NCBI GenBank assembly: GCA_021786945.1
Contig: JAJYMK010000001.1
Location: 794-64,793 of the forward strand
DNA from: a bacterium
GTDB lineage: Bacteria; Patescibacteriota; Minisyncoccia; UBA6257; 02-FULL-45-10c
Length of the DNA: 64,000 bases
Direction: 5' to 3'
Shown in pieces: positions 1-17,519 of the stretch (the stretch's first letter is position 1; the number at the start of each line of letters is the position of its first letter). The notes under the pieces are model-generated. The model saw nothing but the letters and a program-made list of their open reading frames with translations. It made no database searches and had not been told where the DNA came from. Made by a program: the position numbers and the translations under genes.

Positions 1-878
1 ACAAAGTAATCATCCATCCATTTCCTATAAGATGCAATAACTGGTTTTCCGCAGGCCATGGCATCTAAGATAGTCATTTGTCCACTACAATCAGAACCGT
101 CAAAATAAAAATCTTCATTTCTAGACGGAACAATTACTAACCTAGCGCCTTGATATAATTTACGAATAGTTAAATAATCCAAATTATAAAAAATCTCTAT
201 ATTTTTAGGCAAGTCAATAATATTGTTTATATTCCTTTTAGAGCAAACAATTTTTACCTTGATATCGCTTCCCTTAAAAGCTTCTATTAATGTTTTGTAA
301 TCTCTTCCGTTATCTCTACCCACGCTTAAAATATAATCACCATTTTCATGTGTTGGATAAAAAAAATTTTTATCCGTTCCAAAACAAACAACCGATAATT
401 TATTTTCTGGTATACCGATAGATATTAAAAATTTTTTTTGCCAAGTAGATAAACAAATAATTTTATAAGAAAACTTATTTAAAATCCAAGAAATAAATTT
501 TTGTTTACCCCTACTAGATCTTTTTAATAAATTTGTTAGATGTATATTAAAAACAATCCATTTATTATTAGGCCGACCAAACAAACCCTTAAAAAACAAA
601 AGGTTGAGAGCAACCGAAGAAAATATGTAATCGTATTTAAAAATTTTAAAAAAATATAATAAAAAAACCTGATTAAATCCAAATAACTTTCTAAATATTT
701 GCTCAAATTTAAAAGAAAAATCATTGCTAATATCAGCCACATCAGCTTTAAAATTATTATTTTTAATATAATTAAATCCAAATAAAGCAGTATCCGGAAC
801 GATACCTCTTAAATATTCTTTAAAATAAGCTATTCTATTAGCGCCGGCATAGATAAAAACAATTTTCTTATTATTCAT
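1..878 (-). CDS. Glycosyltransferase family 1 (GT4), 5'-partial (gene continues beyond the window start). Start codon ATG at 878-876.
   Basis: I translated the minus frame from ATG at 878 by hand. It is open to position 1 and ends with ...SDCSGQMTILDAMACGKPVIASYRKWMDDYFV, the GT4 C-terminal nucleotide-sugar-binding motif (E..DAMA.G.PVIAS). The track ORF 536..781 is in a different, spurious frame. Partial ORFs are not listed by the track. Confidence 0.8.
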   Translation of the reverse strand, partial: MNNKKIVFIYAGANRIAYFKEYLRGIVPDTALFGFNYIKNNNFKADVADISNDFSFKFEQIFRKLFGFNQVFLLYFFKIFKYDYIFSSVALNLLFFKGLFGRPNNKWIVFNIHLTNLLKRSSRGKQKFISWILNKFSYKIICLSTWQKKFLISIGIPENKLSVVCFGTDKNFFYPTHENGDYILSVGRDNGRDYKTLIEAFKGSDIKVKIVCSKRNINNIIDLPKNIEIFYNLDYLTIRKLYQGARLVIVPSRNEDFYFDGSDCSGQMTILDAMACGKPVIASYRKWMDDYF

Positions 879-987
879 AGTTTAATATTTCAAATATTTT
901 TTAAGTTGTTTTTTATTAAAAAAATAACTTAAAAAATAAAGCATTTAGGCTGTGATTTTTTAATAACAAAATCTCTTAATTTATTTT

Positions 988-1626
988 TTAATTCTTACAA
1001 GACAAAACCTTTACATCGATATATTTATCCTTTTTAAAATAAATTATTTGGCAAGAATTAAAAAATTTATCATATAAACTATTCGGCATTGCCTTGGGAA
1101 TATCTATATATAAAACATTACCAACAAAGTTTTTAAAAATCGACTCGTAACTATTTTCAAAGCCCGGAACGGCATAAATCCTTCTTTCATATTTTCCCAA
1201 CTGTCTTATTTCGTTTCCACCATTATCGTTATAAACCATAACTTTTTTAATATCAGGATTGTTTCTTATAAATTCTACGGAATTTCTTATAAGCTCAGAC
1301 GTTGACCCGTTTATCTTTCCAAATAAATATTCTTCAATAAAAACTCCATTATAAAAAATTCCAACAACCAATAAAGAAATCACACAAGATTTAATTAATT
1401 TTTTATTAAACAAAGATAAACCCATAAAAATAAAACTCAATAACCAATTTAAGCTTATAAATAACCAAGACACGTAAAAACCCAACGGCCCAGATCCCCC
1501 AAAAAACGGAAAAAGAAAATTCCACCTCAAACTAAATACCCGCCCCATCCATTCTTCTTTTGGATAAAGCGGGGGAACAAAATGAGGCAAAAATTGAAAC
1601 GCAAAAAATAGCATACTTAAAATCAA
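988..1626 (-). CDS. Membrane-anchored protein with a soluble C-terminal domain. Probably the C-terminal part of the upstream GT-C transferase (split or translationally coupled, ATGA overlap).
   Basis: 212 aa. N-terminal hydrophobic helices, then a hydrophilic domain. 4-nt overlap (ATGA) with 1623..2666 on the same strand. The combined length of about 559 aa matches PMT/ArnT-type GT-C enzymes. Confidence 0.45.
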   Translation of the reverse strand: MILSMLFFAFQFLPHFVPPLYPKEEWMGRVFSLRWNFLFPFFGGSGPLGFYVSWLFISLNWLLSFIFMGLSLFNKKLIKSCVISLLVVGIFYNGVFIEEYLFGKINGSTSELIRNSVEFIRNNPDIKKVMVYNDNGGNEIRQLGKYERRIYAVPGFENSYESIFKNFVGNVLYIDIPKAMPNSLYDKFFNSCQIIYFKKDKYIDVKVLSCKN

Positions 1627-2666
1627 AACAATGAAAACATTTTTTTATTTACCGGCTCTTTATTTTGATAAAAAATATCAGAAATAACCACACCAGAGAT
1701 TATACAAAGCGGCAATATTAAAAATTGAAAATATCTATCCAATGCGCCAGTAGAAAAATCAAATAAAACGAGATAAAATATTAAGCCCCCGACTATAAAC
1801 AACCAAAAAATTCTCAACTTTTCAGCGATTTCTCTACTCATCCAAAATATAGGTAATAAAAGCAACGGCGAAATATAGATTAATGCTTTAAAAAACTGTA
1901 TAAAGATTTGTAAGTAATTTCTATTGGAAAAAACAATAAAATGAATCCAATAAGAGAAAGACTTTGTTAGATTAAAATACGGAAAAATAAATCTAGACCC
2001 AATTAATACTATTACTAGAAAAATCGACAATCCTCCAACTCCAAAAAAAATATATTTAAATAGCCTTCTTCTTTTCTCTATTGATCTGCTTTGTGAATAA
2101 AAAAAATCAAATACTATAGTACCAATCGCTATAATAAAACTCAGCTTTACCAAAAAACCCAAAATAATTGATAATAAAAAAGCCGCAAACCAAAGGATTT
2201 TATATTTAAATAAAACTGATTCACGCCAGTTAATATAAAAGATTACGGACAATAAGAAAAAGAATGGCAAAATTTGACCGTCGGTGTCAACCATTAATGA
2301 AGCGATTACAGAAAATCCGGAAATTGCATATAAAAAAGAACTTATAAGCGCCGATCTGTCATTAAATATTTTTTTTACTAAATAAAATAATAAAAATAAA
2401 TTGAAAATAGAAAATAAAAAAGGGGTGTATCTAAAATTTTCATATCCAAAAATTTTAGCAGTGTGGGAATAAATAAACTCACTAAGTGGCGGATGAGGTA
2501 TGCTTCCCGGCACGGTAAGCTCCGGATTCATTAATATAGGCCACTTATACTCATCTTGATAGTAGGAAATATGCAAACCCGGAATTCTGATGACAATTAA
2601 TAAAATCAGAATTAGGCCAAATAATAAATTTTTATTCTTTAAAATATTATTCATTTTTTTTGGCAA
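1623..2666 (-). CDS. GT-C fold glycosyltransferase (PMT/ArnT-like, polyprenol-phosphate-sugar dependent), membrane domain.
   Basis: 347 aa. About 9-10 predicted TM helices. A DE motif in the first extracytoplasmic loop (SYYQDEYKWP), as in GT39/GT83 enzymes. Adjacent to a DPM1-like GT2. Confidence 0.6.
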   Translation of the reverse strand: MPKKMNNILKNKNLLFGLILILLIVIRIPGLHISYYQDEYKWPILMNPELTVPGSIPHPPLSEFIYSHTAKIFGYENFRYTPFLFSIFNLFLLFYLVKKIFNDRSALISSFLYAISGFSVIASLMVDTDGQILPFFFLLSVIFYINWRESVLFKYKILWFAAFLLSIILGFLVKLSFIIAIGTIVFDFFYSQSRSIEKRRRLFKYIFFGVGGLSIFLVIVLIGSRFIFPYFNLTKSFSYWIHFIVFSNRNYLQIFIQFFKALIYISPLLLLPIFWMSREIAEKLRIFWLFIVGGLIFYLVLFDFSTGALDRYFQFLILPLCIISGVVISDIFYQNKEPVNKKMFSLF

Positions 2667-3288
2667 TTATTAACATTTGTCCGGCAAAAGGCTTAAATGG
2701 CGAACCGATATACATTCTTACCATAAACGGTAAAATGGGCAAAAACGATGGCCTAGAATTCATAGAAAATGGCAAAAATTTTGGCATTTCATGTATTATT
2801 TTAAAATTATAATTTAACAACGTTTCTTTTAAAGATACATCATCAAATATTTTTTTATGAGTATGATCATCAAAATATTTTTTTGCCGAATAGCGATAAT
2901 TTGGCTGTATTAAAATCAAAACACCATCATTCTTTAGAACTCTTCTTATTTCATTTAAAGTCTTTATAATTTCTTGATCAGTAAAATGCTCCAATAAATT
3001 ACTAGCATGAACTACATCAATTGATTCGTTTTTTATTAAACCAAGATTCCACGCTGGAGCATTTATCATTTCAACATCTTTTGCGGCGTACTTTGGTAAT
3101 TCCGGAGAAATATCAACGGCGTATTTTTTACTGGCCTTAAAATTATTTATAAAATTACAATATCCAGCACCCAAATCTACAACGGATGATTTATTCGTAA
3201 TAAACTTATTTAAATAATTGACTATTTCTTTCCATACAATATTTCTGGATGAATCAAAAATATATCTTGATTGATAATATGAATCCAT
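2647..3288 (-). CDS. Class I SAM-dependent methyltransferase
   Basis: SAM-binding motif I VVDLGAGYCNF (cf. VLDLGCGxG) and motif post-I. 213 aa. Confidence 0.7.
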   Translation of the reverse strand: MDSYYQSRYIFDSSRNIVWKEIVNYLNKFITNKSSVVDLGAGYCNFINNFKASKKYAVDISPELPKYAAKDVEMINAPAWNLGLIKNESIDVVHASNLLEHFTDQEIIKTLNEIRRVLKNDGVLILIQPNYRYSAKKYFDDHTHKKIFDDVSLKETLLNYNFKIIHEMPKFLPFSMNSRPSFLPILPFMVRMYIGSPFKPFAGQMLIIAKKNE

Positions 3289-3291
3289 AAA

Positions 3292-4005
3292 TTAAATCTC
3301 AATGAAACGATACTTTATTATTAAAAAAATCATCTTAAATCCCAGTTTAGCAGCCTTAAAAATATTACCAGTATACATCGACTGACCGATGCGAGGTTTA
3401 AATATAATCGGAATTTCAATTGGGTTAAGACCACACCTTATCAACCAAATCATTAATTCTGGTGAAAAAGTTCCACTCCCATTAGACAATTTAAATAATG
3501 GTTTAATTTTTTCTAGGGCCGAATGAGAAACTAATTTATATGTACAACCGACATCCGTAAGACTGGGTCCATTATGTAAAACTTCTAGAAATTTTGCTAC
3601 AGCCCAATTCCCGAACCTTACCGGAAAAGGCATAAAAGCTCCGGACCAAATCGCCGCTCGAGAAGTTCTGGTGCCAAAAACAACTTCAAAGTTATTACTA
3701 TAATCCAAAAATTTAATTAGATCATTAGGATCAAAAGTTCCATCAGCTTCAGCTATAATAATTAGATCTCCAGTAGATTCTTTTAAGCCCCTCATAATAG
3801 AATACCCATAACCTTGGTTCGGCTCTTTAATATGTCTAGCTTTAGTTTTTTCGATTTCTTCAGAAGTTTTACCCAAAGCATTGTTATTAATAGCTAAAAC
3901 CTCATCTACAAATCCAGTATTAAAAAAACCATTTATTATAGTAGCTATACTATTTTCTTCATTATAAGTAGGCAAAACAATGCTTACTTTTTTATTTTGA
4001 TACAT
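3292..4005 (-). CDS. GT2 glycosyltransferase, dolichyl/polyprenyl-phosphate mannose (or glucose) synthase-like (DPM1/GtrB-like).
   Basis: N-terminal VSIVLPTYNEENSI (GT2 signature), DxD-like IIAEADG. 237 aa is the typical size of DPM1-like enzymes. Confidence 0.8.
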   Translation of the reverse strand: MYQNKKVSIVLPTYNEENSIATIINGFFNTGFVDEVLAINNNALGKTSEEIEKTKARHIKEPNQGYGYSIMRGLKESTGDLIIIAEADGTFDPNDLIKFLDYSNNFEVVFGTRTSRAAIWSGAFMPFPVRFGNWAVAKFLEVLHNGPSLTDVGCTYKLVSHSALEKIKPLFKLSNGSGTFSPELMIWLIRCGLNPIEIPIIFKPRIGQSMYTGNIFKAAKLGFKMIFLIIKYRFIEI

Positions 4006-4043
4006 AAATTTATAGATATAATAACACTTCGAAAAAAGAAAAT

Positions 4044-5099
4044 CTATTTGAACAAATTCTTAACTAATTTATTCAAGCTATGCTTATTTATAACAATGTC
4101 TCTAAGCTTCTTATTAGGCACCTCTCTCTCTTTTATATTTAGAGATAATATATTTTTTAATTGAAAAGCTATGTTTTTATCACTTTCTCTTTCCAAAACA
4201 AATTCTTTATCAATTTCATCATTTAGACTTTTATTAGCAACCAAAACCAAAGACTCACAAGCCATGGCTTCAAATATGGTTTTATCCATACTCCCGCTAG
4301 GGGTTAAATTAACATAAAGTTCGTATTTATTATACAAATCAACAGCTTCTTCGTGTTTAACAGAACCAATAAACTCAACTTTATTTTCTAAATTATATTC
4401 TTTAACTTTTAATTTTAGGCCCTCATAATATCCAATATCTTTAGGAAGCGGATCGCCAACAATGAGAGCTTTAAAAGTTATACCATCTTTATCTAATAAA
4501 TTTAAAGCTTTAATAAACAAATCCGGCTTTTTTATCGGAGAAATTCTGCCTAAAAATAAAATAGAATTTGGTGTTTTCTTGATTTCCGGCTTCCTTCTAA
4601 AAAAATCTGTATCTATACCTACTGGCATAATCTCGGTTTTCTTAAATCTTGCCGTATAAGAATATTTTGAAGTGCAAAAAACTCTATCGGAAACCCAAAC
4701 CGCAAAATTAGTCAAAAAAGATCCGTAGGGATGGTTTCTCCATAACATTATTTTTTTACCTAATAATTTCCATAATTTCCAACCCAAAAGCGCATACTCC
4801 TGATTCATATGCACAAAAACGGCATCATAATTTTTCCTTTCCTGCCAAATATATTTATAGAATCTATATACAAATAAAAACTTGCTAAAAATATGCGAAT
4901 AATACGAATGGCTACGAATATATTCTTCTTTACCAAGAGACAAAACCGTAACATTGGATGGCAAACTATATTCCCCCTTTTCTAAGCAAACAACCGTCAC
5001 TTTTTCGCAGTTTTTAGAAAACTCTTCCGTCCACCTATGAAAGAAGCCAAGAATTGGATCGTTTATGTCTATTTTCTGCGTTACTATTAATAATTTCAT
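4044..5099 (-). CDS. GT4 glycosyltransferase
   Basis: C-terminal FEAMACESLVLVANKS motif (E..EAMA....V). 351 aa. Confidence 0.75.
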   Translation of the reverse strand: MKLLIVTQKIDINDPILGFFHRWTEEFSKNCEKVTVVCLEKGEYSLPSNVTVLSLGKEEYIRSHSYYSHIFSKFLFVYRFYKYIWQERKNYDAVFVHMNQEYALLGWKLWKLLGKKIMLWRNHPYGSFLTNFAVWVSDRVFCTSKYSYTARFKKTEIMPVGIDTDFFRRKPEIKKTPNSILFLGRISPIKKPDLFIKALNLLDKDGITFKALIVGDPLPKDIGYYEGLKLKVKEYNLENKVEFIGSVKHEEAVDLYNKYELYVNLTPSGSMDKTIFEAMACESLVLVANKSLNDEIDKEFVLERESDKNIAFQLKNILSLNIKEREVPNKKLRDIVINKHSLNKLVKNLFK

Positions 5100-5147
5100 G
5101 TATATGATACTAATCTACAAATTTTATAAGAGTGCTACGAATAAAAA

Positions 5148-6011
5148 TTATCTTAATTTAATCTTTTTGCCGTAAACACCCATTAATAAATCTAAATCTT
5201 TTTTGGATTTTATCAATAATTCAATATTTTTCCGTTCAATAGCCGAAAGAACCGTAATTCCGGCTTTGTCTTTTTTCATTTCTTTTTTATAAAGCCTGGT
5301 TAAAGCAGCAAAATCTTTTATAAAGCAATGCCCTCCACCCCCGCGGCCATTTTTATGAACCGGATTTACATGCATTGGGCCAATCCATGGATCCACAACT
5401 ATTAAATCGCCTAAAACTTTCCAATCTGCACCTATTTTTTGAGATAAATCATACAAAATATTCATAAAAACAACTTTTGAATAAAAGAAACAATTTCGGG
5501 CATATTTAAAAAGCTCGGCTTCCCTAGCCATGCAAATTTTCTCGGAATTACTCTTTGGTAAAATATCTAAAACCATTTTAGCTTTGGCGCGATAAATAGC
5601 ACTATTAATCGGAATGCCGATTATATTATGATGCGGGGACGCAACATCTTTAGCGGCAGTAGCCTCAGTTAAAAATTCCGGGGAATGCATAACAAAAATA
5701 TCCGGATTTTCTTTTTGTAATTTTTCTGTCGAACCGGGAATTATAGTTGATTTAATAACGGCAATCTTACCACTTCCAACTAATTTAATAACCTTTTTTA
5801 CAATACCCAAATTAAATCCCTTGGAAGTTGTTGGAGTTGGAACGGCAATAAAAACAATATCGCAATTTTTTATTTTTTCTTTGTTTCCAATATATGGCTC
5901 TTCCTGAGAGTAACGGACAACATTAAAACCCCTCCTTTCAAAGTCGTCAGCATAATTTTTGCCAATCCAACCCTGGCCAATAAAACCTATTTTTAAATTA
6001 TTTTTTATCAT
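5148..6011 (-). CDS. UDP-glucose/GDP-mannose dehydrogenase family protein, C-terminally truncated (lacks the UDP-sugar-binding domain).
   Basis: Rossmann GFIGQGWIG. SPEFLTEATAAKD matches NPEFLREGTAIKD of UGDH. Catalytic-Cys motif GGGGHCFIKDFAAL matches GGSCFPKD. The protein ends about 60 aa after the Cys motif (287 aa versus about 390-440 aa for UGDH). Confidence 0.65.
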   Translation of the reverse strand: MIKNNLKIGFIGQGWIGKNYADDFERRGFNVVRYSQEEPYIGNKEKIKNCDIVFIAVPTPTTSKGFNLGIVKKVIKLVGSGKIAVIKSTIIPGSTEKLQKENPDIFVMHSPEFLTEATAAKDVASPHHNIIGIPINSAIYRAKAKMVLDILPKSNSEKICMAREAELFKYARNCFFYSKVVFMNILYDLSQKIGADWKVLGDLIVVDPWIGPMHVNPVHKNGRGGGGHCFIKDFAALTRLYKKEMKKDKAGITVLSAIERKNIELLIKSKKDLDLLMGVYGKKIKLR

Positions 6012-6012
6012 T

Positions 6013-7125
6013 TTAAATAATTTGTTTATATAACTTCAAATACCTTTCCTTGGTCATTAAATTTTCAGATACTTTAATACTATTTTTACTAAAATAGACC
6101 AATTCCTCTGTATTGGACATCAAAAAATCGACCTCCCTGATCATCGCAGATTCATCTCCCACAGGAACAACGATTCCGTTTTCTTTGTTTTTTAAAACCT
6201 CCCCAGCCAAACCAACGTCTGTCGTGACAACCGGCAATCCCGCCGCCATAGCCTCAATGACCGTTCTACCATAGCCCTCATAATTTGAAGTTAATAAAAA
6301 TAAATCAGCTGTTTTGTAATAAGATACCAAATCATCGGACCAGCCCTCAAAAACAACACTATTATTAATTTTTAAGCGTAAAACTAAATATTTAAGTCTA
6401 GCCTCCTCAGAACCAGAACCAACTATTATCAATCCAAGCTTTGGATGCTTCTTAACTAATTCCGACATCGCTTCTATAGCTAAGCCAATATTTTTTTCCT
6501 TTGTAATTCGCGAAGACATTAAAATTATAAAATTGAATTGCGGATACTTCTTATGAAGATCTGTTTTAATTGGGGCTGTTTTAATCACTTCAACATCTAC
6601 AAAAATAGGAAGCACTATAATTCTATTTAAAATTGAAGGTTTAAAATTAGAAATTAATGAGTGCTTGATTCGTTCCGAAACTACCCGAATTTTATCAGCG
6701 CGAGGAATTATAAATTTAGCCAACGAAACCCTAAATTTATTTAAAAAGGACTCTTGCCAAAAATATGGACTCAAAAAATCCGTATGGATCTGAATTTGAA
6801 GCGATAAATTATATATTTTTTTAAGCATCCACCCTGCTAAGCCCGCCTCGAAAGGATCTTGAGAAGAAATAACAATGTCTTTATTTAAAATTATTGATTT
6901 TGAAATTTTATATATACCCCAAAGATAAAATAATTTACAAAAATGATTCGTAGGATATACAAAAATATTTTCCCCTATTTTTGTCTTTTGATTTTTTAAT
7001 TTTTTACCGGAAAAAACTATTACATGGATTTCTTGAAATAATTTTCCATAATCCAAATATCGGTTCCATACGTCGGAACCCTCTTTAAACAAATTTCTAT
7101 CAGAGCCAATAACTAATAATTTCAT
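6013..7125 (-). CDS. GT4 glycosyltransferase
   Basis: EGYGRTVIEAMAAGLPVVTTDVGLAGEV motif. 370 aa. Confidence 0.8.
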   Translation of the reverse strand: MKLLVIGSDRNLFKEGSDVWNRYLDYGKLFQEIHVIVFSGKKLKNQKTKIGENIFVYPTNHFCKLFYLWGIYKISKSIILNKDIVISSQDPFEAGLAGWMLKKIYNLSLQIQIHTDFLSPYFWQESFLNKFRVSLAKFIIPRADKIRVVSERIKHSLISNFKPSILNRIIVLPIFVDVEVIKTAPIKTDLHKKYPQFNFIILMSSRITKEKNIGLAIEAMSELVKKHPKLGLIIVGSGSEEARLKYLVLRLKINNSVVFEGWSDDLVSYYKTADLFLLTSNYEGYGRTVIEAMAAGLPVVTTDVGLAGEVLKNKENGIVVPVGDESAMIREVDFLMSNTEELVYFSKNSIKVSENLMTKERYLKLYKQII

Positions 7126-7131
7126 AAAAAA

Positions 7132-8220
7132 TTATATTGACTTTAACAATTCAGATAGGCGATTCAGCATAGTTTCAAGTGAAAATCTAGCTAATTCTTT
7201 GTGGGAATTTTCTATAAATTTGCTCTGTAGTTGCTCATTTTTAACAACTTTCAAAATAGCGTCTCTCAACTGGTTTTTATTATTATATTCAACCAATAAG
7301 CCATTATAGTCATTTTTAATCAATTCGGGGTTGCCTCCAATATTTGTGGTAACTACAGGCGCGCTATTCTGCATAGATTCTAAAATAATATGAGAAAGTC
7401 CCTCGTACGATGTATTCAATGCAAATACTTTGGCTAAACCAAAATATTTATGCATTTGTTCATGATTTAAACCACCCAACAAAACAACTTTATTATCTAA
7501 TTTAAGGTTTGAAATTAAAGATTTAAGATTATTTTCTTCCGGACCAACCCCGGCAATAAAAAGTTTGAAATCGTCAGGCAATTCCCGCATAACTTCAATC
7601 AATAAATCAAAACCTTTCCAAGGCACCAATCTTCCCGCGGAAAAAATAATATTATCTTTTTTAATATTTGGTTTAGAAATATCACCTTCCAAAGAATTAT
7701 AAATTACCGTGATTTTTTCTTCGGATACACCCCATTTTTTGACAATGCCTTTCAAATACTCACTAGGCACAACAATTTTATCAGCTTTATCCGCAACCCA
7801 TCTTTCAATACATCTCCTTAATTCAGTTATAAATGAATATTCTTGAGACTGAAAAACCTCGAGAGTTACCAATTCAGAACTAAAACTTTTAATCTGTAGT
7901 TGCTCCCAAGCATAATCACCCACAATCTTAAGTAAAAACTTCTTGTTCAAAAATCTAGCAACCAAAGCCGCTGGCAAACCAACGCTTACAGGATCTTGAG
8001 CATAAAGCATATCCACGCCAAAAGATCTTTTTAAAACCTTAAAAAAATAAACAATATGCCTTATTCCTCTAGGCCATCTCCTGACGTCGCCGAAGCTCAA
8101 AACTTCAACTTCAAAGCCACGCTTTGGAAGCTCATCTTTTAATAATTTGCTATATGTAGCTGGACCCCCGATATCCGGAGGATAAATGCCGGTACAAATC
8201 AATATACGAAGAGAAGACAT
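7132..8220 (-). CDS. GT4 glycosyltransferase
   Basis: EGLSHIILESMQNSAPVVTTNIGGNPELI motif. 362 aa. Confidence 0.8.
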   Translation of the reverse strand: MSSLRILICTGIYPPDIGGPATYSKLLKDELPKRGFEVEVLSFGDVRRWPRGIRHIVYFFKVLKRSFGVDMLYAQDPVSVGLPAALVARFLNKKFLLKIVGDYAWEQLQIKSFSSELVTLEVFQSQEYSFITELRRCIERWVADKADKIVVPSEYLKGIVKKWGVSEEKITVIYNSLEGDISKPNIKKDNIIFSAGRLVPWKGFDLLIEVMRELPDDFKLFIAGVGPEENNLKSLISNLKLDNKVVLLGGLNHEQMHKYFGLAKVFALNTSYEGLSHIILESMQNSAPVVTTNIGGNPELIKNDYNGLLVEYNNKNQLRDAILKVVKNEQLQSKFIENSHKELARFSLETMLNRLSELLKSI

Positions 8221-8303
8221 AATTTAAAATTTAATATTTAAGATTTAAGAATGATTTAATGATTTAATGATTTAAGGATTTAATAATTTAATGATTAAAA
8301 GAG

Positions 8304-8684
8304 CTATTTTTTAAAATCAGAATGTCGTAATAAGAATTTTCTAAAGTTAGATAATTTTATAGAGATATTTTCTAAATTATTATATAGCTCATCAAATTGC
8401 TTTTTATCTATATACTTATTATCCAGCAAAATATACAAAATACAACGCACTTCTCCGGCCGAACCCTTTGATATATTAATGAAATTAGCAAATTCTTTAT
8501 TAGAGCTCCTCTCAAAACCCTCGGCTATATTCAGCATTATTGAATAAGCCGATCTTTTTAATTGATCCGTCAGAGAAAAATCCTTTCGCAATTTCGCACT
8601 ACTCTCTATTAATTTATAAATTTTGTTTACTAGCACTCTTGATTCCATCCATATAGGTAAATCTTCAAATTTAGAAATATTCAT
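8304..8684 (-). CDS. Four-helix-bundle protein (23S rRNA intervening-sequence protein family).
   Basis: MLNIAEGFERSSNKEFANFINISKGSAGEV matches the NIAEG..R....F..FL.IA.GS..E signature of the TIGR02436-type four-helix-bundle family. 126 aa. Confidence 0.75.
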   Translation of the reverse strand: MNISKFEDLPIWMESRVLVNKIYKLIESSAKLRKDFSLTDQLKRSAYSIMLNIAEGFERSSNKEFANFINISKGSAGEVRCILYILLDNKYIDKKQFDELYNNLENISIKLSNFRKFLLRHSDFKK

Positions 8685-8729
8685 GAGAAAAATATTTAAT
8701 ATTTAAGATTAAAAAATAAAATTAAGGGT

Positions 8730-9869
8730 TTATAAACTATAAATTCGTTCTGTTTCGGAGACCATTTTTTCTAAGCTGAATTTATCTTTTACAATTTCCT
8801 TAGCTTTTCGGGAAAGCTCTTTGGCTATTTCTTTATTTTCTATTAATCCACCGATAGCTCGTGCTAAAGCTTCAGGATTTTTCTGGGAAACCATAAGTCC
8901 ATTTTCGTGGTTTTTAATCATTTCCGGTATACCCCCGGCTTCAGTTACCACAATAGGAAGCTCTGCGGCCATAGCTTCCAAAAGAATATAAGGAAGACCC
9001 TCCTTAATCGAGGACATAGCAAAAACATCGAAAGCTTTTAGATATTGGGCGTCGTTGCCGCTCGGAGAAATAATAAAGAATCGGTCAGATAATTTAAGCT
9101 TTAAAATTAAAGATTTAAGATTACTTAATTCTAGGCCGTCGCCAATTATAAAAAAGTATGTGTTTTTTACAAATTTTGCCGCCCCTATAAATGTTTCGTA
9201 ATTTTTTTCTTTGACCAATCTGCCTACCGACCCAACCCACTGATATTTCTCTTCTAATTTTGAAACTTGTGGTGAGTTTACCGAACCATCATTAAATATT
9301 TTAATCATTAAATCTTGTCTTGATTCTTTTTTTGATAAAAACTTCATATCCGCATTTATTCCGTTATGTATAGTGGAAAGTTTTTCTTCTGGGCAAATAT
9401 CATATTCAAGCGCTAAGTTGTAGTCGTATTCGGACACGCAAATTATTTTATCCTGAAATTTTGCCGCAAATTTATGCAATAAAACATAAAACTGACGGAC
9501 AAACTTGCTAATTTCGTTTGTCGGATTAAATACCCAACCATGCGCAGTAAATACCACCCTTATTTTTTTATTAAAATTTTTATTGTATATAGCAGCGGCA
9601 AGAGATCCTAAAACTCCGGCCTTAGAACTATTCAAATGTATAATATCCGGATTTTCTTTCTTGAAAACATTTACCAATTCAAATATAGCCATCCAGTCAT
9701 TGAAAAACAAAAACCACGGATAGGTTTTATTTGAAAGCCATCTCACCTCCCTATCTCCATATAAAACTCGGGAATCGAATTTATTTTTATCCAAATTATC
9801 CGCTAAATCTTTAACGTACTTCTGCGCCCCGCCTATGCCTGATTTAGTTAAAATATAAAGAATCTTCAT
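8730..9869 (-). CDS. GT4 glycosyltransferase
   Basis: EGLPYILLEAMAAELPIVVTEAGGIPEMI. 379 aa. Confidence 0.8.
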   Translation of the reverse strand: MKILYILTKSGIGGAQKYVKDLADNLDKNKFDSRVLYGDREVRWLSNKTYPWFLFFNDWMAIFELVNVFKKENPDIIHLNSSKAGVLGSLAAAIYNKNFNKKIRVVFTAHGWVFNPTNEISKFVRQFYVLLHKFAAKFQDKIICVSEYDYNLALEYDICPEEKLSTIHNGINADMKFLSKKESRQDLMIKIFNDGSVNSPQVSKLEEKYQWVGSVGRLVKEKNYETFIGAAKFVKNTYFFIIGDGLELSNLKSLILKLKLSDRFFIISPSGNDAQYLKAFDVFAMSSIKEGLPYILLEAMAAELPIVVTEAGGIPEMIKNHENGLMVSQKNPEALARAIGGLIENKEIAKELSRKAKEIVKDKFSLEKMVSETERIYSL

Positions 9870-9931
9870 AATACAAATAAAATACTAATATTATACGGAT
9901 TTTACGAATAACTACGAATATTAATTAAGAA

Positions 9932-11119
9932 TTATGATTTTAATGAATTAAAAATTCTGTCCATTTTTTGAGCTACAACATCCCAAGAATAATGAGAAAT
10001 TACTAACTCCGCGGCATTTTTGACTACTTTGTCCCTCAAATCTTTATGGCTTAATATGTAGCTAATTTTTTCTGCCAAATCTTCAGGATCTTCAGGGTTC
10101 ATCAATAAACCAGTCTGACAATTAAATAAGAAATCCGTTATTCCTCCAATCGGGGTCCCGATAACTGGAACTTCCGCAGCCATAGCTTCCAGAAAGGAAT
10201 TACCTAGACCCTCCGATCGCGAAGCACGTACAAAAACATCGGAAATCCTGAAATAAATCGGCAAATCTTTTTGCGGAATTTGGCCCAAAAAGATAATTTC
10301 CCTATCCAGTTTTAATTTTTTTATTTTTAATTTTAACTTATTTAATTCCGGCCCATCACCGATAATTAATGCTTTTATATTGGGCTTTATTTCTTTTACT
10401 TTAGCTATAGCCTCAATCAAAATATCTACTCCGTTTTTATAAACTAGGCGAGAAGTGGTTAAAACCACATACTCATCCGTAATTCCAAGATTATCCCTTA
10501 ATAATTTGAGTTCTGATTCTTTGTATTTTGTTTCAAACAAATCTATATCAACTCCATTAGGTACTACTTCAATTGGACATTCGGCGCCTCTTTTTATTGC
10601 AAAGTCGGCCAAATACTTACTGATTGACTGTATAAAATTAGCTTTTTGAATTATTTTTTTTCCAAACCAACCCACTAGCCCAAATTTTCCCAAAATTAAA
10701 TATTTTTCACTGTCACCTTCCTGCAAAGTGAGAAGCAACGGGACTGAAGGATGATTAAGTTTAAACAATAGCGCGGCAATTCCGCCATAGGAAGCCATTA
10801 AAGCCCAAACAGCATCAAACCTTTTATATTTATGAATATTTTCAGCTTCTTGCCAGGCTTTGTATATATATGAAATTTTTCCCCAAATACGGCCATAATA
10901 TTTTTTAGTTCCGGATTTTCCTATTTTAATATCTCTACCAAAACCAACACGAATAATATCAAAGTTTTCACCTCTTTCCAAAGAAAGCCAGTTTCGGTTG
11001 AATTTATAGGTAAAAATATTGAAATTTTTACCTTTTAGGCGACTTACCATCTCTCTGGCGGCTATTTCCGCTCCGCCCTCAAAGGGACTGTAAGCAAGAG
11101 TAAATAAAGCAATATTCAT
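9932..11119 (-). CDS. GT4 glycosyltransferase
   Basis: EGLGNSFLEAMAAEVPVIGTPIGGITDFL. 395 aa. Its upstream 35 nt are nearly identical to those of the preceding GT4 gene. Confidence 0.8.
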   Translation of the reverse strand: MNIALFTLAYSPFEGGAEIAAREMVSRLKGKNFNIFTYKFNRNWLSLERGENFDIIRVGFGRDIKIGKSGTKKYYGRIWGKISYIYKAWQEAENIHKYKRFDAVWALMASYGGIAALLFKLNHPSVPLLLTLQEGDSEKYLILGKFGLVGWFGKKIIQKANFIQSISKYLADFAIKRGAECPIEVVPNGVDIDLFETKYKESELKLLRDNLGITDEYVVLTTSRLVYKNGVDILIEAIAKVKEIKPNIKALIIGDGPELNKLKLKIKKLKLDREIIFLGQIPQKDLPIYFRISDVFVRASRSEGLGNSFLEAMAAEVPVIGTPIGGITDFLFNCQTGLLMNPEDPEDLAEKISYILSHKDLRDKVVKNAAELVISHYSWDVVAQKMDRIFNSLKS

Positions 11120-11304
11120 GGATACAAATAAAATACTAATATTATACGAGTTTTAACGAATGGATACGAATCACTACGATGCGAATTAATATGTAATAGC
11201 TATATTATAACAAAATACTATACAAATAGGTTACGAATTTATGAATACGAATAAGGACAAATGTGAGTTAATAAATAACTAAAAAGATTTAAAGATATAA
11301 AAAC

Positions 11305-11330
11305 AAAAACTCCCCTTTCGGGGAGTTTTT
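11305..11330. terminator. Bidirectional rho-independent terminator (AAAAACTCCCC-TTTC-GGGGAGTTTTT).
   Basis: Perfect 11-bp stem, 4-nt loop, A/T runs on both sides, immediately 3' of the surface-protein gene. Confidence 0.8.
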
Positions 11331-11367
11331 GCAGTCATTCCGAGTTTTAAAGTCGGAGCTCAAGAGA

Positions 11368-14300
11368 CTAAGGAACCAAGGTGATATTGCTCCATGCCGG
11401 CATTGTAGTAATGGCCGGGTTATGAGCGATACCTTTAGACACTCCATCAGACCAGCTGTATTCAGGCATAGAAACGTTGCCACTAATTGTATTAGTGGAT
11501 GTAACTTTCTGAGCTGAAGTAAGCGGAGTCATGTAGAAGGAAATGTTCTTGGAGCTTCCAGCGGTGATCACAGGAACATTGGTCAAAAGATCAATGGCCT
11601 TAGAAACACCAAAGGTAACTGTAGTTGTGCCCAATGTCTTACCGTTATCGTTATCGTAAACGGTTAGAGTCGTTGAGGTCGCTGTTGAGGTAGCGTTGTA
11701 AACATTCAACAAGATAGTTGTTGAAGCAAGAGTCAAATCCTGCAATGCAGAAGGAGAGCTATTGCTAAATACAACTTTACCAATAAGTGTACCGATGCTG
11801 TCAGTTGTACCAACGGTAGTTCCGCTAGTAGCGACGCTCAATACGCCCTTATAGATAGTGAATGTTGCACCACTGTCAACATGCGAAGTCAATGTATTGG
11901 CCGCATTAGAAGCAGCGCCAGAATACATTGCGCTAAGGAATCCTGCATCAACTGTATCTCCAGAAACAGCATTGTTAATTCCGTTAATATCAGCAACCAT
12001 GCTAAGAGTGACATTGCCGTTCTGAGGAACAACTAATGCACCCGAAGGAATGGTGAAGGTTAACGCAGTGCTTGTTCCAGCCAAACCGCTGATAGTAGAA
12101 CCAACTTGAGTGGTTCCATTCATCAACTTAATGTTGGCAAGATCAGCAGCAACCGTGGAAGTAGCGATAACAGATACACTGGTAACACTGAGACCTTCGT
12201 TGTTGTCAGCAGATAACTTGAAGCTGGCAAGCTTGAGACCAGAAAGGCCCATAGCCACCTGTTGTGAAACGGGAGAATCCGGAGACAAAGCAGCAGACAA
12301 AGTACCAGCAGCATTAACAGCTACTGTTTGTCCAGCTGGAGTGCCAGACAAAGTCTTGCTGGAGTTAGATGACATACCGGTTGCAGAAGCTCCTGTTAAG
12401 GAAACAACTGTAGCGGCAGACGAAGTAGCTCCGCTAATGGTATCAGCATAAACATCAACTATAGCGCTACCGCCAGCAGCAATAGCTATCGGGCTGGAAA
12501 CGCTAAAGGTGTAAGGCTGATCATTAGCCAAGGTTGTCTGAGTATAGCCAATCTGAGTGCTACCATTCAAAACTTTCAAGTTTTGGAAGTGGTTAGCAAC
12601 GTTAGAAGCGGCTGTTTTAAGAGTAACGCTAATAACGTTAGCTCCTTCAGCAGCACCGGCAGACAAAGAGAATGATCCGATCTTTACGCTCTGAGCGCCA
12701 GATACTGTGATAATGTTACCAACAGCATTGTTGACGGTCGCAGAGAAAGAGGCGGAGCTAGCGCTCAATGAATTACCAGACTGAGCCGGAACTGTAACGC
12801 TGGCCAAAGAAGTGTAGCCCTGACCGGAGCCAGAAACCAAATCACCTTCAATAGTACCAGTGTAACCAGAGATTACATCAGCTTTGATAGACAAAACTCT
12901 TGTCTGACCAGCAGGAATGATGTAATTCAAATTGGTTAAATCAGTTTGCTTTGCAGCATCGGAAGTAGATCCCGAAGAAGCCAATGTTCCAATTTGAACA
13001 CCCTGATCATCAACTAACTTCAAATTGTTCCAAACTGTATTCTCAGCTTGAGAACTGTAAGAAATCTTGTATGACAAGGCTGTTATGCGGACAGCTTCAC
13101 CAGCAGCGGCGAAGTCGAAGCTAGCCAATGTTTGATTGGTTGAGCCAGGAACAACGTAGTTAGCTGGAGAATTGGCATCCTTGGAAACTGTAAGTGTTCC
13201 CTGAGAAACGGAAACTTGAGATCCGTTAATTGGGAAGGTTCCGGTGGATGAAGCGCCGACATTGTAAGACATATCTGTGCTTACGACATCATAAGAGCGC
13301 TGGATTGTTAAAGTGAAGTTACGATTAACGCCACCAACAACATCAGCATAAACCATCAAATTGACGGTTTGACCGGAAGGAATCTGCAAAGGATTGCTGG
13401 ACAAGTCAAAGACAACTGTACCATCAGCATTCAAAGAAAGAGCGGTGGCGCCAACTTGGACGGAACCGTTCATTAATTTGATGTTAGCCAAATCGGTAGA
13501 AGCATTGATTGTACCAGTTTCGGTAAGCTTGACGGATTTTACGCTTACAGCGCTATTATTAGCCTGCATGGAAAATTCACCAGCCAAGAAATTGGTAGAA
13601 CCAGCATTTACCTGACCGCCAGTAACGATATCGTTAAGAGCGAGTGTAGCTAAAGCCGGATTGGTGACGGAAACAGCAGTCATAACATTGCTGAGCATCG
13701 GGAAGTTGCCCGATACTGTAGCGCTGGCGGTAATATCGGAAGCAGCATTAACATTCCAAGAATATGTATGGGATGTAGTAACACTAGAGAGAACGTCAGC
13801 GGCAACGGTAATAACTTTTGATGTACCAGCTTTTACTGTGAAGATACCAGCTGGAAGAGAGAAGGAAGCCTTACCATTGGCTAAGCCAAGGTTTGTGGCC
13901 AAAACCTTACTTCCATCCATCAAGTATACATTCTGAATGTCGTTATCGCTGGAGAGACCTCCGCGGTAAACATTCATAGCGGTAACTGTAACATCGCTAG
14001 CACCAGCGGACATATTCAAGTTCAAGAAAGGAACTTGGGTAGCGCCAGCTGGAAAATTACCAGAAACAGGATTGGAAGAAGCAACGCTTACAGACAATCC
14101 AGATCCGGACGGGGTTACTACAGTTCCGGTGGAACCAGTGGAAGTACCAGTGGAACCAGTGGAAGCAGAACCCATAGCAGACAATTTGGCTCTTGTTTTA
14201 GCGCCAAAGTATCCAGCGGCCGGGGAAATTCCCTGAGCAGCTTGGAATTTAGCGAGAGCGGCCTTAGTAGCGTTACCAAAATAAGTGGTCTCGTTACCGG

Positions 14301-14631
14301 CGGAACCAGCTCCGCTAGTGGCTACAGCATAACCGGAAGCATTCAAGAATTTCTGCAAATCCATAACTGCAGCTCCTTTACTACCAACGGTGAGGTCGCT
14401 GGAAGACAAAAGGGAAGCTGGAACAGCGCTAGAAGAAGCAGAAGATCCAGAAGTGCTCAATTGGCTTTGCATAGCCGTAATTTGTGCCATCAAAGCAGCA
14501 ATCTGAGCCTGCAACTCTTCAACGGTAGCACCGTGAACAGAAGACGGGATCAAAGAAGCAGCTCCTGAGAGCGACAAAACTGTAGCTATTGAAACTACAG
14601 AAATTGAAACTTTTGTAATTAATTTACTCAT
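11368..14631 (-). CDS. Large secreted Ser/Thr/Ala/Gly-rich surface protein with N-terminal signal peptide, coiled-coil segment, peptidoglycan-binding (PG_binding_1-like) module and long internally repetitive beta-rich region. S-layer/fibril-like candidate.
   Basis: 1087 aa. Signal peptide MSKLITKVSISVVSIATVLSLSGAASLIPSSVHGA. PG-binding-like DLQKFLNASGYAVA...YFGNATKAALAKFQAAQGI. Repeated module ...ANIKLMNG(S/T)(V/T)QVG(A/S)T... occurs at least twice. GC visibly higher than in neighbouring genes, consistent with the Ala/Gly/Ser/Thr bias. Confidence 0.8.
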   Translation of the reverse strand: MSKLITKVSISVVSIATVLSLSGAASLIPSSVHGATVEELQAQIAALMAQITAMQSQLSTSGSSASSSAVPASLLSSSDLTVGSKGAAVMDLQKFLNASGYAVATSGAGSAGNETTYFGNATKAALAKFQAAQGISPAAGYFGAKTRAKLSAMGSASTGSTGTSTGSTGTVVTPSGSGLSVSVASSNPVSGNFPAGATQVPFLNLNMSAGASDVTVTAMNVYRGGLSSDNDIQNVYLMDGSKVLATNLGLANGKASFSLPAGIFTVKAGTSKVITVAADVLSSVTTSHTYSWNVNAASDITASATVSGNFPMLSNVMTAVSVTNPALATLALNDIVTGGQVNAGSTNFLAGEFSMQANNSAVSVKSVKLTETGTINASTDLANIKLMNGSVQVGATALSLNADGTVVFDLSSNPLQIPSGQTVNLMVYADVVGGVNRNFTLTIQRSYDVVSTDMSYNVGASSTGTFPINGSQVSVSQGTLTVSKDANSPANYVVPGSTNQTLASFDFAAAGEAVRITALSYKISYSSQAENTVWNNLKLVDDQGVQIGTLASSGSTSDAAKQTDLTNLNYIIPAGQTRVLSIKADVISGYTGTIEGDLVSGSGQGYTSLASVTVPAQSGNSLSASSASFSATVNNAVGNIITVSGAQSVKIGSFSLSAGAAEGANVISVTLKTAASNVANHFQNLKVLNGSTQIGYTQTTLANDQPYTFSVSSPIAIAAGGSAIVDVYADTISGATSSAATVVSLTGASATGMSSNSSKTLSGTPAGQTVAVNAAGTLSAALSPDSPVSQQVAMGLSGLKLASFKLSADNNEGLSVTSVSVIATSTVAADLANIKLMNGTTQVGSTISGLAGTSTALTFTIPSGALVVPQNGNVTLSMVADINGINNAVSGDTVDAGFLSAMYSGAASNAANTLTSHVDSGATFTIYKGVLSVATSGTTVGTTDSIGTLIGKVVFSNSSPSALQDLTLASTTILLNVYNATSTATSTTLTVYDNDNGKTLGTTTVTFGVSKAIDLLTNVPVITAGSSKNISFYMTPLTSAQKVTSTNTISGNVSMPEYSWSDGVSKGIAHNPAITTMPAWSNITLVP

Positions 14632-14966
14632 GTTTATTTTTAATTTGATCTTTTCTTAAACGAATTTCAGTCGACGAAATTTTTTGTGTTTAAGAAAAAA
14701 TTATCTTTCTAATTTTCTTTTCTTTCTAAAAAAATTATTTTTACGCTACTCTCTTCATACCCGTAGGCACAAGAGATCGACCTTGCGTAGTTTCGAAATA
14801 ACTTTCTCGGTATCTTTACCCGTACGTTTATAAAAAACGCATGTGGGTTTGCACCAACATCCAAGATGGATATTTGACACCCCCACACCGATTGCAACAA
14901 TTCATGAAATACTGTGAGGATATTTCATTACAGCAATAGGTGTGGGGGAAAAAATTTATTAACCTA

Positions 14967-14999
14967 TAAAAGAAAAGTCTCGCTGTTTAGAGCGAGACT
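14967..14999 (-). terminator. Rho-independent terminator for the upstream minus-strand gene (AGTCTCGCT-CTAAAC-AGCGAGACT + U-run on minus).
   Basis: 9-bp perfect stem. The run AAAAGAAAA on plus is a U-run on the minus strand. It sits about 270 nt downstream of the 15274..16113 gene stop. Confidence 0.65.
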
Positions 15000-15273
15000 G
15001 AATACACCAAATATGAAAACCTAAAGCTGCTTTGCTTTAAGTTTTAATTTGGAAGATTCAGCCTCACACTAAATCTTCTGGTTTATATAATAATTATATA
15101 TTTATTTTTTCAAATTCGCAAAACTTTGAAATTGTGAATAATTTATACAACTTTAAAGCCTTACAAAACTTATTAAATATAACGAACTTCGACCTAATTT
15201 ATTACACTTGATTTACGAATAATATGGTACCAATCTGCGAATGTATGCGAATGATCTAAACCAAGAAAAAGAG

Positions 15274-16775: not shown

Positions 16776-17519
16776 CTATATCTTCCACTTAGTAAAAAAG
16801 AAAATGACGAAAAACGATAAAACCAAAACAATTAAATTTTTTATTATTAATTTTTTGGTTACCAAACCTCTAAAATGATTTACCAGAAAATCCATACCAA
16901 GATAAAAAATTACCATTGCCAAGGTTGCCGAATTTATAAAACCAAACGGCAACAAAGAAATGACCCAAACAATTTGCAACATAACAAATGCGAAAATTAA
17001 TGCGGCGAGATTATAACGCTTTGGAAAAGTTGCATAAAGCCAAAAGAGCCACTCGCGGACCAACAAAAACAAAACTAAAAAAATCGACAGAAATTTTACC
17101 GGAAAAAGAAAATATTTATCGGCTAGAAAATAAGACAAAAAAACCGAATAAACCAAAAAAAGATTTTTTATGTAATTCCATTCAAAACGATGGGTAAAAG
17201 CAAATTCCTTTATACCCAAAGAAATATAGAATAAAAACGAAAAGAAAATTACCGATAACAGTAAAAATTCGGGGTGGCTAAGCTGACTGATCCCATAAAG
17301 AGAAGAAGCCAAAAGAATTAGAAATGAAGAAAAGTTTTCTAGATTGTTTTGGGTATGATTGCGGAAATATAAAATAAAACAGGCTAAAAGAAAAACAAAA
17401 ATAGGCAGAGTCATGAAATCCGACGTCCTTACCCACAATAAAAGCCCGGCAAATATAAAACTCTTAAGAATTAATCGCAATTGAACGGTTTTCAAAACCG
17501 ATTTTAATTTTTGCACCAT
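16776..17519 (-). CDS. Polytopic membrane protein, hypothetical (real start probably the internal Met MTLPIF at 17417, which removes the overlap with clpB).
   Basis: About 7 hydrophobic helices. The annotated start overlaps the clpB 3' end by 56 nt. Starting at the internal Met avoids this. Confidence 0.45.

Follow-up and report, generated by a model that had tools for sequence, protein, structure and literature searches.

The dedicated O-oligosaccharyltransferases (O-OTases) of bacterial pilins are encoded directly after the gene of their acceptor, as is the case of PilO/TfpO after pilA in Pseudomonas and of PglS after comP in Acinetobacter, and surface-layer (S-layer) proteins of the SbsB type are made of an N-terminal wall anchor which is followed by about six Ig-like domains. 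In the slg clusters, which serve S-layer protein O-glycosylation, the guanine plus cytosine (GC) content is below that of the genome and the centre is strain-specific, and next to the cluster are the S-layer genes, sgsE and sgtA, each transcribed alone (PMC2943079). According to the same source, WsaB, WsfB, PglL and PilO carry a Wzy_C domain, with C-terminal TPR repeats in WsfB and PglL, and in Paenibacillus alvei WsfH loads glucose on a separate lipid carrier, this glucose being transferred by WsfD to the glycan as a branch. We have analyzed a stretch of 64,000 nucleotides from a patescibacterium (hereafter the window; contig JAJYMK010000001.1 of assembly GCA_021786945.1, positions 794 to 64,793), in which the gene of a large predicted surface protein, here designated the giant, stands next to an island of glycosyltransferase (GT) genes. 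The comparison with the systems above indicates that this locus is best filed, pending experiment, as a patescibacterial variant of the Gram-positive S-layer-type protein O-glycosylation loci. Few uncultured bacteria are as abundant as the Paceibacteria (Parcubacteria), and almost nothing is known of the molecules at their cell surface.

The giant gene and its transcription signals are the following (lengths in amino acids, aa):

11368-14631, minus strand: the giant, 1087 aa, a predicted secreted protein anchored to peptidoglycan (PG), from Pfam, composition, an AlphaFold2 (AF2) model and HHalign.
11303-11332, minus strand: intrinsic terminator belonging to the giant, located 36 nt past the stop codon, whose 13-bp stem contains 6 GC pairs and precedes a T run.
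14632-15273, minus strand: leader/promoter region of the giant, 642 bp, non-coding, containing a long hairpin (14945-14878).

The composition of the giant is similar to that of surface-layer proteins, with few charged residues: Ser and Thr account for 26.9% of the residues, versus 11.1% in other long open reading frames (ORFs), Lys and Arg for 3.7%, and Cys is absent; the GC content of its gene (45.5%) results from the Ala, Gly, Ser and Thr content. The AF2 model, computed from 88 homologs, has a mean pLDDT of 87.5. Within it, the N-terminus (residues 1-35) is disordered and by its sequence resembles a signal peptide (approximately 1-34), and is followed by a coiled-coil helix (37-61) with a conserved heptad-like LQAQIAAL sequence, by a Ser-rich linker, by the PG_binding_1 domain (86-150 by Pfam, 72-154 in the model) and by a second linker of Ser, Thr and Gly at 155-172. 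The remainder, from residue 177 to 1087, is modelled as six beta-sandwich (Ig-like) modules of about 150 aa reaching the C-terminus. A repetitive beta-rich region had already been noticed in an earlier reading made from the sequence alone, and is confirmed by structure prediction together with HHalign on the family alignment, according to which the six modules are mutually homologous (95-99% probability, E 5e-8 to 8e-20). This homology required profile-profile comparison, since BLAST of the giant against itself returned no internal repeat. No Pfam family covers the module, and Foldseek against the PDB retrieves generic tandem Ig-like arrays, such as PrgB, the C-domains of antigen I/II, integrin alpha legs and the MG domains of alpha-2-macroglobulin. 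Judging from sequence and model, the giant looks like a wall-anchored surface protein, S-layer-like or fibrillar. Other types of surface protein were also considered: a lipoprotein is excluded because there is no Cys, a sortase substrate is unlikely as neither a C-terminal LPXTG motif nor a transmembrane helix is present, and a PG hydrolase is unlikely as Pfam found no catalytic domain.

A first search returned 649 homologs of the giant, nearly all of 1,070-1,300 aa, and all those with a named source are from Patescibacteria/Parcubacteria, where they are annotated just as "peptidoglycan-binding protein". Among 1.84 billion cluster representatives, a profile search then picked out 4,500 clusters at 50% identity with E at or below 1e-30, the top matches being aligned end to end. 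Across the family the Ser plus Thr content is 22-30%, and the two linkers on either side of the PG-binding domain vary among members and are of low complexity, with poly-Thr, Thr-Pro or Gly-Thr runs. The anchor itself may be swapped, as in P0026, P0390 and P0490: in some members the coiled coil and the PG-binding domain give way to another N-terminal domain, of about 220 aa and with no Pfam match, and one member has a Big_5 domain instead. According to a recent preprint, such swapping of anchor domains is typical of S-layer proteins and Ig-like arrays are their commonest fold. Predicted S-layer proteins in Patescibacteria are reported in a preprint. In three Paceibacteria, the five secreted proteins with the highest expression include some with PG-binding domains (Kuroda et al. 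2024, PMC10936435).

The giant gene looks monocistronic, because a terminator follows its stop codon and a 642-bp non-coding region precedes its start. The terminator (11332-11303), a strong one, stands between the giant and the GT genes. The hairpin of the leader (window 14878-14945, minus strand) is long and GC-rich, CCCCCACACC...GGTGTGGGGG, and an Rfam search of the leader region matched no family. Codon usage is biased as well, with 4% of G-ending fourfold codons versus 15% in ClpB, and with GCT and GTT at 73% and 69%, a bias which recurs in the homologs. The same avoidance of G-ending codons is observed in a secreted helical-repeat protein of 299 aa with a weak Apolipoprotein-like match (window 20666-21565, minus strand), which may be another abundant envelope protein.

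The survey of what accompanies the giant in other genomes comprised 80 loci from one-per-species genomes, among them Lipton-, Wolfe-, Colwell-, Azam-, Jorgensen- and Harrisonbacteria and Minisyncoccia, and two further loci, 82 altogether; 63 loci have at least 3 kb of flank. The commonest gene downstream of the giant encodes a Wzy_C protein of 650-790 aa, mostly with C-terminal TPR repeats, which starts within 1.5 kb of the giant stop codon, usually after 100-400 bp, in 36 of these 63 loci. On either side of the giant it is found in 42/63, several loci having two copies that flank the giant, and nearly all the Wzy_C matches in the surveyed flanks adjoin the giant. Seven of the giant-adjacent proteins reach 52-77 bits with Pfam Wzy_C, the gathering score being 31.7, and their hydropathy profile evidences a loop of 80-90 aa after approximately the ninth transmembrane helix, a crude count giving 12 or 13 such helices. 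In many loci the pair formed by the giant and Wzy_C has no glycan genes nearby and is followed by an ECF (extracytoplasmic function) sigma module or by gyrB (for example L025 and L037), while in L072 it is followed by a Wzx flippase and by a fusion of a methyltransferase with a GT4. In the literature that we searched, a Wzy_C+TPR partner for a patescibacterial protein of this kind is not described. As for the linkers, overall Ser plus Thr content and run length did not differ between giants with and without an adjacent Wzy_C gene, and the peak Ser/Thr content over 20 aa is marginally higher in those without (p=0.03), the comparison being uninformative. In four loci (L025, L014, L040 and L047, at about 16.3-18.3 kb) a conserved reverse-strand trio comes after the pair, encoding proteins of about 250 and 160 aa and a sigma factor of the ECF type; the trio may regulate the response to envelope stress in connection with the giant locus.

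Glycan genes are found in the vicinity of the giant in a minority of the loci. A GT4 gene lies downstream in 12 of the 63 loci, and with more queries and a looser threshold a GT4, GT2 or Wzx gene is found within 10 kb in about 23 of the 80, almost always downstream. Two loci (L046 and L078) have orthologs of four of the window GT4s (42-52% identity) directly after the giant, even though their giants are just 33-36% identical to that of the window.

On the upstream side the window contains a block of genes which is shared with many of the other loci:

15274-16113, minus strand: winged-helix (HTH_DeoR, Pfam) protein, conserved upstream neighbour of the giant.
16776-17519, minus strand: multi-pass membrane protein with no Pfam match, part of the block ClpB, membrane protein, winged-helix protein, giant.
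17464-20148, minus strand: ClpB, the synteny anchor, 60-70% identical across loci.

ClpB is upstream of the giant in 53/82 loci and the winged-helix gene, immediately adjoining it, in 52/82, often with the membrane protein in between; the latter has positional equivalents in L001, L046 and L078 and tblastn matches in 7 loci. As called, the ORF of the membrane protein has 56 nt (17464-17519) in common with the 3' end of clpB, and its true start is probably further downstream. The similarities of the two conserved proteins do not run in parallel: loci L001/L003, L004 and L010 have the most window-like giants (46-53% identity) yet the least similar ClpB (60-64%), most other loci having ClpB at 65-70% and the giant at 32-39%, which hints at lateral exchange or at old allelic lineages of the surface protein.

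The island on the other side of the terminator was annotated from Pfam and NCBIfam scans of the ORFs; all window genes from position 1 to about 20 kb are on the minus strand:

3-878, minus strand: GT4 with its ATG at 878-876, the 5' part of a 352-aa gene that crosses the window start; Glycos_transf_1 and Glyco_trans_1_4 are found on the full product in a 100%-identical contig (L083).
988-1626, minus strand: C-terminal fragment of a GT-C, 212 aa; homologs of about 555 aa span both window ORFs, and an intact allele of 555 aa (P0242) is present in the sister strains L087 and L088.
1623-2666, minus strand: N-terminal fragment of the GT-C, 347 aa, with Pfam PMT_2 (PF13231) at 39.6 bits and the loop-1 DE motif D38-E39.
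1640-1646, minus strand: poly-A tract in the GT-C gene, A7 in the window (gene split) and A8 in the sister strains (gene intact).
2647-3288, minus strand: S-adenosylmethionine-dependent methyltransferase (Pfam Methyltransf_23/11/25).
3292-4005, minus strand: GT2 of 237 aa (Pfam Glycos_transf_2), like a polyprenyl-phosphate-sugar synthase of the DPM1/AglJ type.
4044-5099, minus strand: GT4 (Pfam Glycos_transf_1), with a 42%-identical ortholog downstream of the giant in L078.
5148-6011, minus strand: protein like a nucleoside diphosphate (NDP)-sugar dehydrogenase, 287 aa, with only the UDPG_MGDP_dh_N and central domains (Pfam) and without the C-terminal UDP-binding domain.
6013-7125, minus strand: GT4 of the strain-variable segment (Pfam Glycos_transf_1, 144 bits), replaced in L087.
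7132-8220, minus strand: GT4 of the strain-variable segment (Pfam Glycos_transf_1, 142 bits), of which L087 matches only a part, at 93.5% identity.
8304-8684, minus strand: 23S_rRNA_IVP four-helix-bundle protein (Pfam PF05635, 119 bits) at the edge of the variable segment; the corresponding segment of L087 has a GIY-YIG gene.
8730-9869, minus strand: GT4 (Pfam), with orthologs of 49-52% identity directly after the giant in L046 and L078.
9932-11119, minus strand: GT4 (Pfam), with orthologs of 46-52% identity in L046 and L078.

The sequence-only reading had listed a DPM1-like GT2, a GT-C with the loop-1 DE motif, six GT4s, a methyltransferase, a sugar dehydrogenase and the 1087-aa Ser/Thr-rich PG-binding protein, and we find every one of them, encoded by the minus strand, at the same coordinates. 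Its account needs amendment in the details, as the GT-C is split by a frameshift (347 + 212 aa), the dehydrogenase is truncated, the 23S_rRNA_IVP gene had been left out and a terminator parts the giant from the GTs. The truncation is also evident from the NCBIfam NDP-sugDHase match, which ends at position 281 of the 413 in the model, this gene being within the strain-variable segment. For the GT2 the top NCBIfam matches are AglJ, dolichyl-phosphate-hexose transferase and ArnC, every one below the curated cut-off. No island gene matches GtrA_DPMS_TM in Pfam, and L078 alone has a GtrA domain, fused to a GT4. The GC content of the GT genes is 26-35%, and that of the island as a whole 27-34%, versus some 37-41% in most of the flanking genes.

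From contigs that are identical or nearly identical to the window we were able to follow the cluster for about 9 kb past the window start, where the rest of the first GT4 is succeeded by two methyltransferases, a GT4, a methyltransferase, an AsnB-like amidotransferase, a methyltransferase, Wzx and a Wzy_C+TPR protein; the Wzx gene, with which the island ends, is on the opposite strand. The order in this genome is thus giant, GT island, Wzx and a Wzy_C+TPR protein of 731 aa (Wzy_C by precomputed Pfam), the last at the far end of the island and outside the window, so that the island separates the giant from its usual neighbour. In its N-terminal 137 aa this protein is 30-45% identical to the giant-adjacent Wzy_C proteins in most loci.

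The giant protein of the sister strain L087 is 100% identical to that of the window, and the flanks are 99.2-99.6% identical, whereas a central segment of 3.9 kb (window 8747-4832; L087 4940-7823) is replaced. The window has in this segment the 23S_rRNA_IVP gene, two GT4s, the dehydrogenase-like gene and the first part of the GT4 that follows, and L087 has two other GT4s and the GIY-YIG gene instead; small mobile-type genes, 23S_rRNA_IVP in one strain and GIY-YIG in the other, mark the exchanged cassette. The GT-C gene differs between strains by a single base over 1.7 kb, a deletion of 1 nt in a poly-A run. The split A7 form is found in the window, L083 and L084 (the window assembly, ERZ27237183 and SRR13178629), and the A8 form, which encodes the intact 555-aa protein, in L087 and L088 (assemblies SRR22746137 and SRR22746138). 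Either slippage-based phase variation or a fixed strain polymorphism would account for this difference.

The GT-C is also the enzyme to which the sequence-only reading had assigned the modification of the giant, leaving the choice between families GT39 and GT83 to further analysis. The family has 508 matches, from Yanofsky-, Zambryski- and Buchananbacteria and Paceibacterota, with homologs all of about 555 aa. The DE motif D38-E39 is invariant in 51 homologs, and as it is common to other GT-C families it is not discriminating. PMT_2 is the sole Pfam match of the window protein, in which no MIR domains are found. It thus falls outside PF02366, the protein O-mannosyltransferase (PMT) family, which a few of its homologs also match; nor is there a sequence-level match to ArnT or GT83 (NCBIfam, PDB-sequence profile), and the family profile finds nothing at E of 1 or below among PDB sequences. 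ArnT is the closest relative by fold only: the AF2 model of the homolog P0122 has a GT-C fold (pLDDT 92, pTM 0.92), and Foldseek places ArnT (5EZM) first, with E 7e-8, a TM-score of 0.57 over the full length and 12% identity. Oligosaccharyltransferases, ALG9/12 and EmbB come next, Pmt1/2 and Pmt4 being partial matches with E around 4e-4. To our knowledge, Patescibacteria are not expected to possess a pathway for lipid A.

Of the 82 giant loci, none has a match to either half of the GT-C or to the methyltransferase, and the GT2 is found once, weakly. In two unrelated genomes (L085 and L086) the GT-C adjoins a GT2 of about 240 aa in polysaccharide clusters which have no giant, one with GT4s and a Wzm/Wzt-like ATP-binding cassette (ABC) transporter, the other with Wzx, Bac_transf and Wzy_C+TPR. 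In fact, GT2 and GT-C are adjacent in every context examined, that is, in the window and its sister strains, in L085 and in L086. The synteny expected by the sequence-only reading holds in part, GT4, GT2 or Wzx genes being near the giant in about 23/80 loci, and fails for the GT-C; for the specific mechanism proposed there, most of what that reading had named as refuting it is what we found.

In the reading which we tentatively favour, and to which we give somewhat less than an even chance, the locus is slg-like, the giant being O-glycosylated en bloc and the GT2/GT-C pair adding a variable side branch. The giant, presumably abundant as the major wall-anchored protein at the surface of Paceibacteria, would be exported by Sec and held on PG by its N-terminal coiled coil and PG_binding_1 domain, with the six Ig-like modules pointing outward. 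At the cytoplasmic face the GT4s and methyltransferases of the island would build a lipid-linked glycan, which Wzx would flip across the membrane and the Wzy_C+TPR protein would attach as a whole to Ser/Thr residues, the likeliest sites being in the low-complexity linkers on the two sides of the PG-binding domain. GT2 and GT-C would constitute a separate module, in which the GT2 makes a polyprenyl-phosphate-sugar and the ArnT-like GT-C adds the side-branch sugar outside the membrane, a branch that would be off in the window strain as a result of the A7 frameshift. The gene content, domain architecture, family size, synteny, strain variation and folds are observed here, and from them we infer the surface abundance of the giant, the O-OTase activity of the Wzy_C+TPR protein, the acceptor sites and the role of the island as glycan supplier. 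Wzy_C follows the giant even where there are no glycan genes, as would be expected of a ligase or O-OTase tied to its acceptor, and not of a repeat-unit polymerase. The earlier idea of a glycosylated surface layer or fibril remains plausible, in view of the secreted, PG-anchored Ig-like array, the Thr/Ser-rich linkers and the Wzy_C+TPR neighbour, although not with the enzyme that had been proposed.

A number of observations weigh against this reading. About one third of the loci with enough flank have no adjacent Wzy_C gene, and only about 23/80 have glycan genes in the vicinity; the closest relative of the giant (53% identity) is followed by thioredoxin and sugar-metabolism genes, with no GTs. 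O-antigen ligases and some polymerases likewise fall within Pfam Wzy_C, PglL_A is not detected by Pfam in the giant-adjacent Wzy_C proteins, and the count of 12 or 13 transmembrane helices is compatible with either membrane side for their TPR domain. No initiating phosphoglycosyl transferase of the Bac_transf/WecA type is present in the recovered island or among the scanned window ORFs, and it may sit elsewhere in the genome. In respect to expression, the ribosomal proteins of a relative do not share the codon bias of the giant, for which reason this bias, which is not a calibrated sign of high expression, was dropped as evidence. Moreover, the PG-binding-domain gene of Kuroda et al. that could be checked encodes 692 aa and may fall outside the giant family.

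In the main rival, a serious one, the product of the island is a Wzx/Wzy-dependent polysaccharide of the cell wall or capsule which is not attached to the giant, with the Wzy_C+TPR protein as its polymerase or ligase and with GT2/GT-C decorating the polymer. The giant would then be bound to the wall without being glycosylated, and would have its gene in a common envelope locus perhaps on account of an interaction with the polymer. This we consider somewhat less likely than the slg-like reading. In its favour, the content of the island, including Wzx and the AsnB-like amidotransferase, is standard for a polysaccharide cluster, the GT2/GT-C homologs reside in such clusters (with ABC transporters, Bac_transf or another Wzy_C+TPR protein) where the giant is absent, a strong terminator parts the giant from the island, most giant loci have no GT genes, and the Wzy_C family includes polymerases as well as ligases. 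However, repeat-unit polymerases normally travel with their glycan cluster, whereas here Wzy_C comes next after the giant in 36/63 loci, many of them without nearby glycan genes. Also, the giant is anchored by a PG-binding domain and not by the polymer-binding SLH or CWB2, and its disordered Thr/Ser-rich linkers are typical targets of O-glycosylation. Less probable still, and in our view improbable, is an incidental adjacency in which a recombination hot spot downstream of the giant receives horizontally acquired islands of low GC content, functionally unrelated both to the giant and to Wzy_C. The low GC of the island, the cassette exchange between strains, with small mobile-type genes (IVP, GIY-YIG) at the junction, and the variable gene content downstream of the giant among loci would fit such a scenario, but where glycan genes are present they are nearly all on the Wzy_C side and recur in about 23/80 loci from many lineages, L046 and L078 carry orthologous GT4s, and the pairing of the giant with Wzy_C is left unexplained.

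The proposal of the sequence-only reading was an O-mannosylation of actinobacterial style, in which the GT2 makes polyprenyl-phosphate-mannose and a PMT-like GT-C O-mannosylates the giant directly during export. The adjacency of GT2 and GT-C, the invariant loop-1 DE motif, the PMT_2 match with a few homologs that also match PF02366, and the Ser/Thr-rich composition of the giant speak for this possibility, which we consider very improbable. The GT-C is present in 0/82 giant loci and the GT2 weakly in one, the closest fold is ArnT while the PMT matches are partial and MIR domains are absent, and no solved structure is related to the family by sequence. Further, the GT-C is frameshifted here, whereas the giant is intact and 100% identical to that of a strain with an intact GT-C, and elsewhere the GT2/GT-C pair is embedded in polysaccharide clusters.

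If the slg-like reading is extended beyond the window, the giant and the Wzy_C+TPR protein may constitute a class-wide dedicated surface-glycoprotein system of Paceibacteria, consisting of the envelope-layer protein long sought in these ultra-small cells and of its O-OTase, with a coat that would be diversified by cassette exchange in the island and switched by poly-A slippage in the GT-C. We regard this broader proposal as rather unlikely as it stands; if true, it would imply antigenic or phase variation of the glycan coat, bearing on host attachment or phage escape. Irrespective of this, the giant family, with some 4,500 clusters at 50% identity of PG-anchored Ig-like arrays of 1,100 aa, is a candidate for the main surface protein, its conserved Wzy_C+TPR partner for a protein O-OTase, and the strain-variable glycan island with its frameshift-switched side-branch transferase for a source of surface diversity. 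Confirmation would mean that S-layer-type protein O-glycosylation, known from Firmicutes, reaches Patescibacteria, and would offer handles (antibodies, lectins and glycoproteomics targets) for the study of host attachment and phage interactions of Paceibacteria.

Elsewhere in the window, the segment 43221-62167 comprises a tRNA into which a serine recombinase gene extends with its 3' end, and then HTH regulators, RadC, Fic, C5 and N6 DNA methylases, an NgoFVII-like restriction enzyme and a 548-aa protein, with GC content of up to about 45%; it is probably an integrated mobile element or a restriction-modification island.

Each of the known systems shares part of its organization with the giant locus. 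The decoration systems with three components, GT2, flippase and GT-C (ArnC/ArnT, CsbB/YfhO, GacI/GacL), likewise have a short GT2 resembling a polyprenyl-phosphate-sugar synthase which adjoins an ArnT-like GT-C inside a glycan cluster, and differ in that the island has no GtrA-like flippase and the window GT-C has no sequence-level membership of GT83. The SbsB-type proteins of Geobacillus differ from the giant in the anchor type, and SbsB is not among its top 50 Foldseek matches, but the architecture is alike, with a signal peptide, an N-terminal wall-binding module and six beta-sandwich domains, the giant having few charged residues and no Cys. The pilin O-OTases (PilO/TfpO, PglS) and Neisseria PglL act on an acceptor that is a pilin, whereas the putative acceptor here is an Ig-like array of 1,100 aa, and PglL_A was not detected; what is alike is that the gene of a Wzy_C membrane protein is, in most relatives, directly downstream of that of the (here putative) acceptor. 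These enzymes take a lipid-linked glycan and attach it as one block to Ser/Thr of flexible regions, and by analogy the same activity is predicted here.

The closest correspondence is with the slg loci of Geobacillus stearothermophilus NRS 2004/3a (sgsE and wsa) and Paenibacillus alvei (spaA and wsf). Here the host is a patescibacterium, the putative acceptor has PG_binding_1 and a coiled coil as its anchor instead of SLH, export would proceed through Wzx rather than through a Wzm/Wzt ABC transporter, and neither a WbaP-like initiating enzyme nor rml sugar-nucleotide genes were found. Nevertheless, in both cases a monocistronic surface-protein gene lies near a glycan cluster of low GC content with a strain-specific centre, and a Wzy_C protein, with C-terminal TPR in WsfB as in our locus, is the O-OTase, an activity which is predicted here. 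Methyltransferases are likewise present in both, as is a pair formed by a GT2 and a membrane transferase, which may be compared to WsfH/WsfD.

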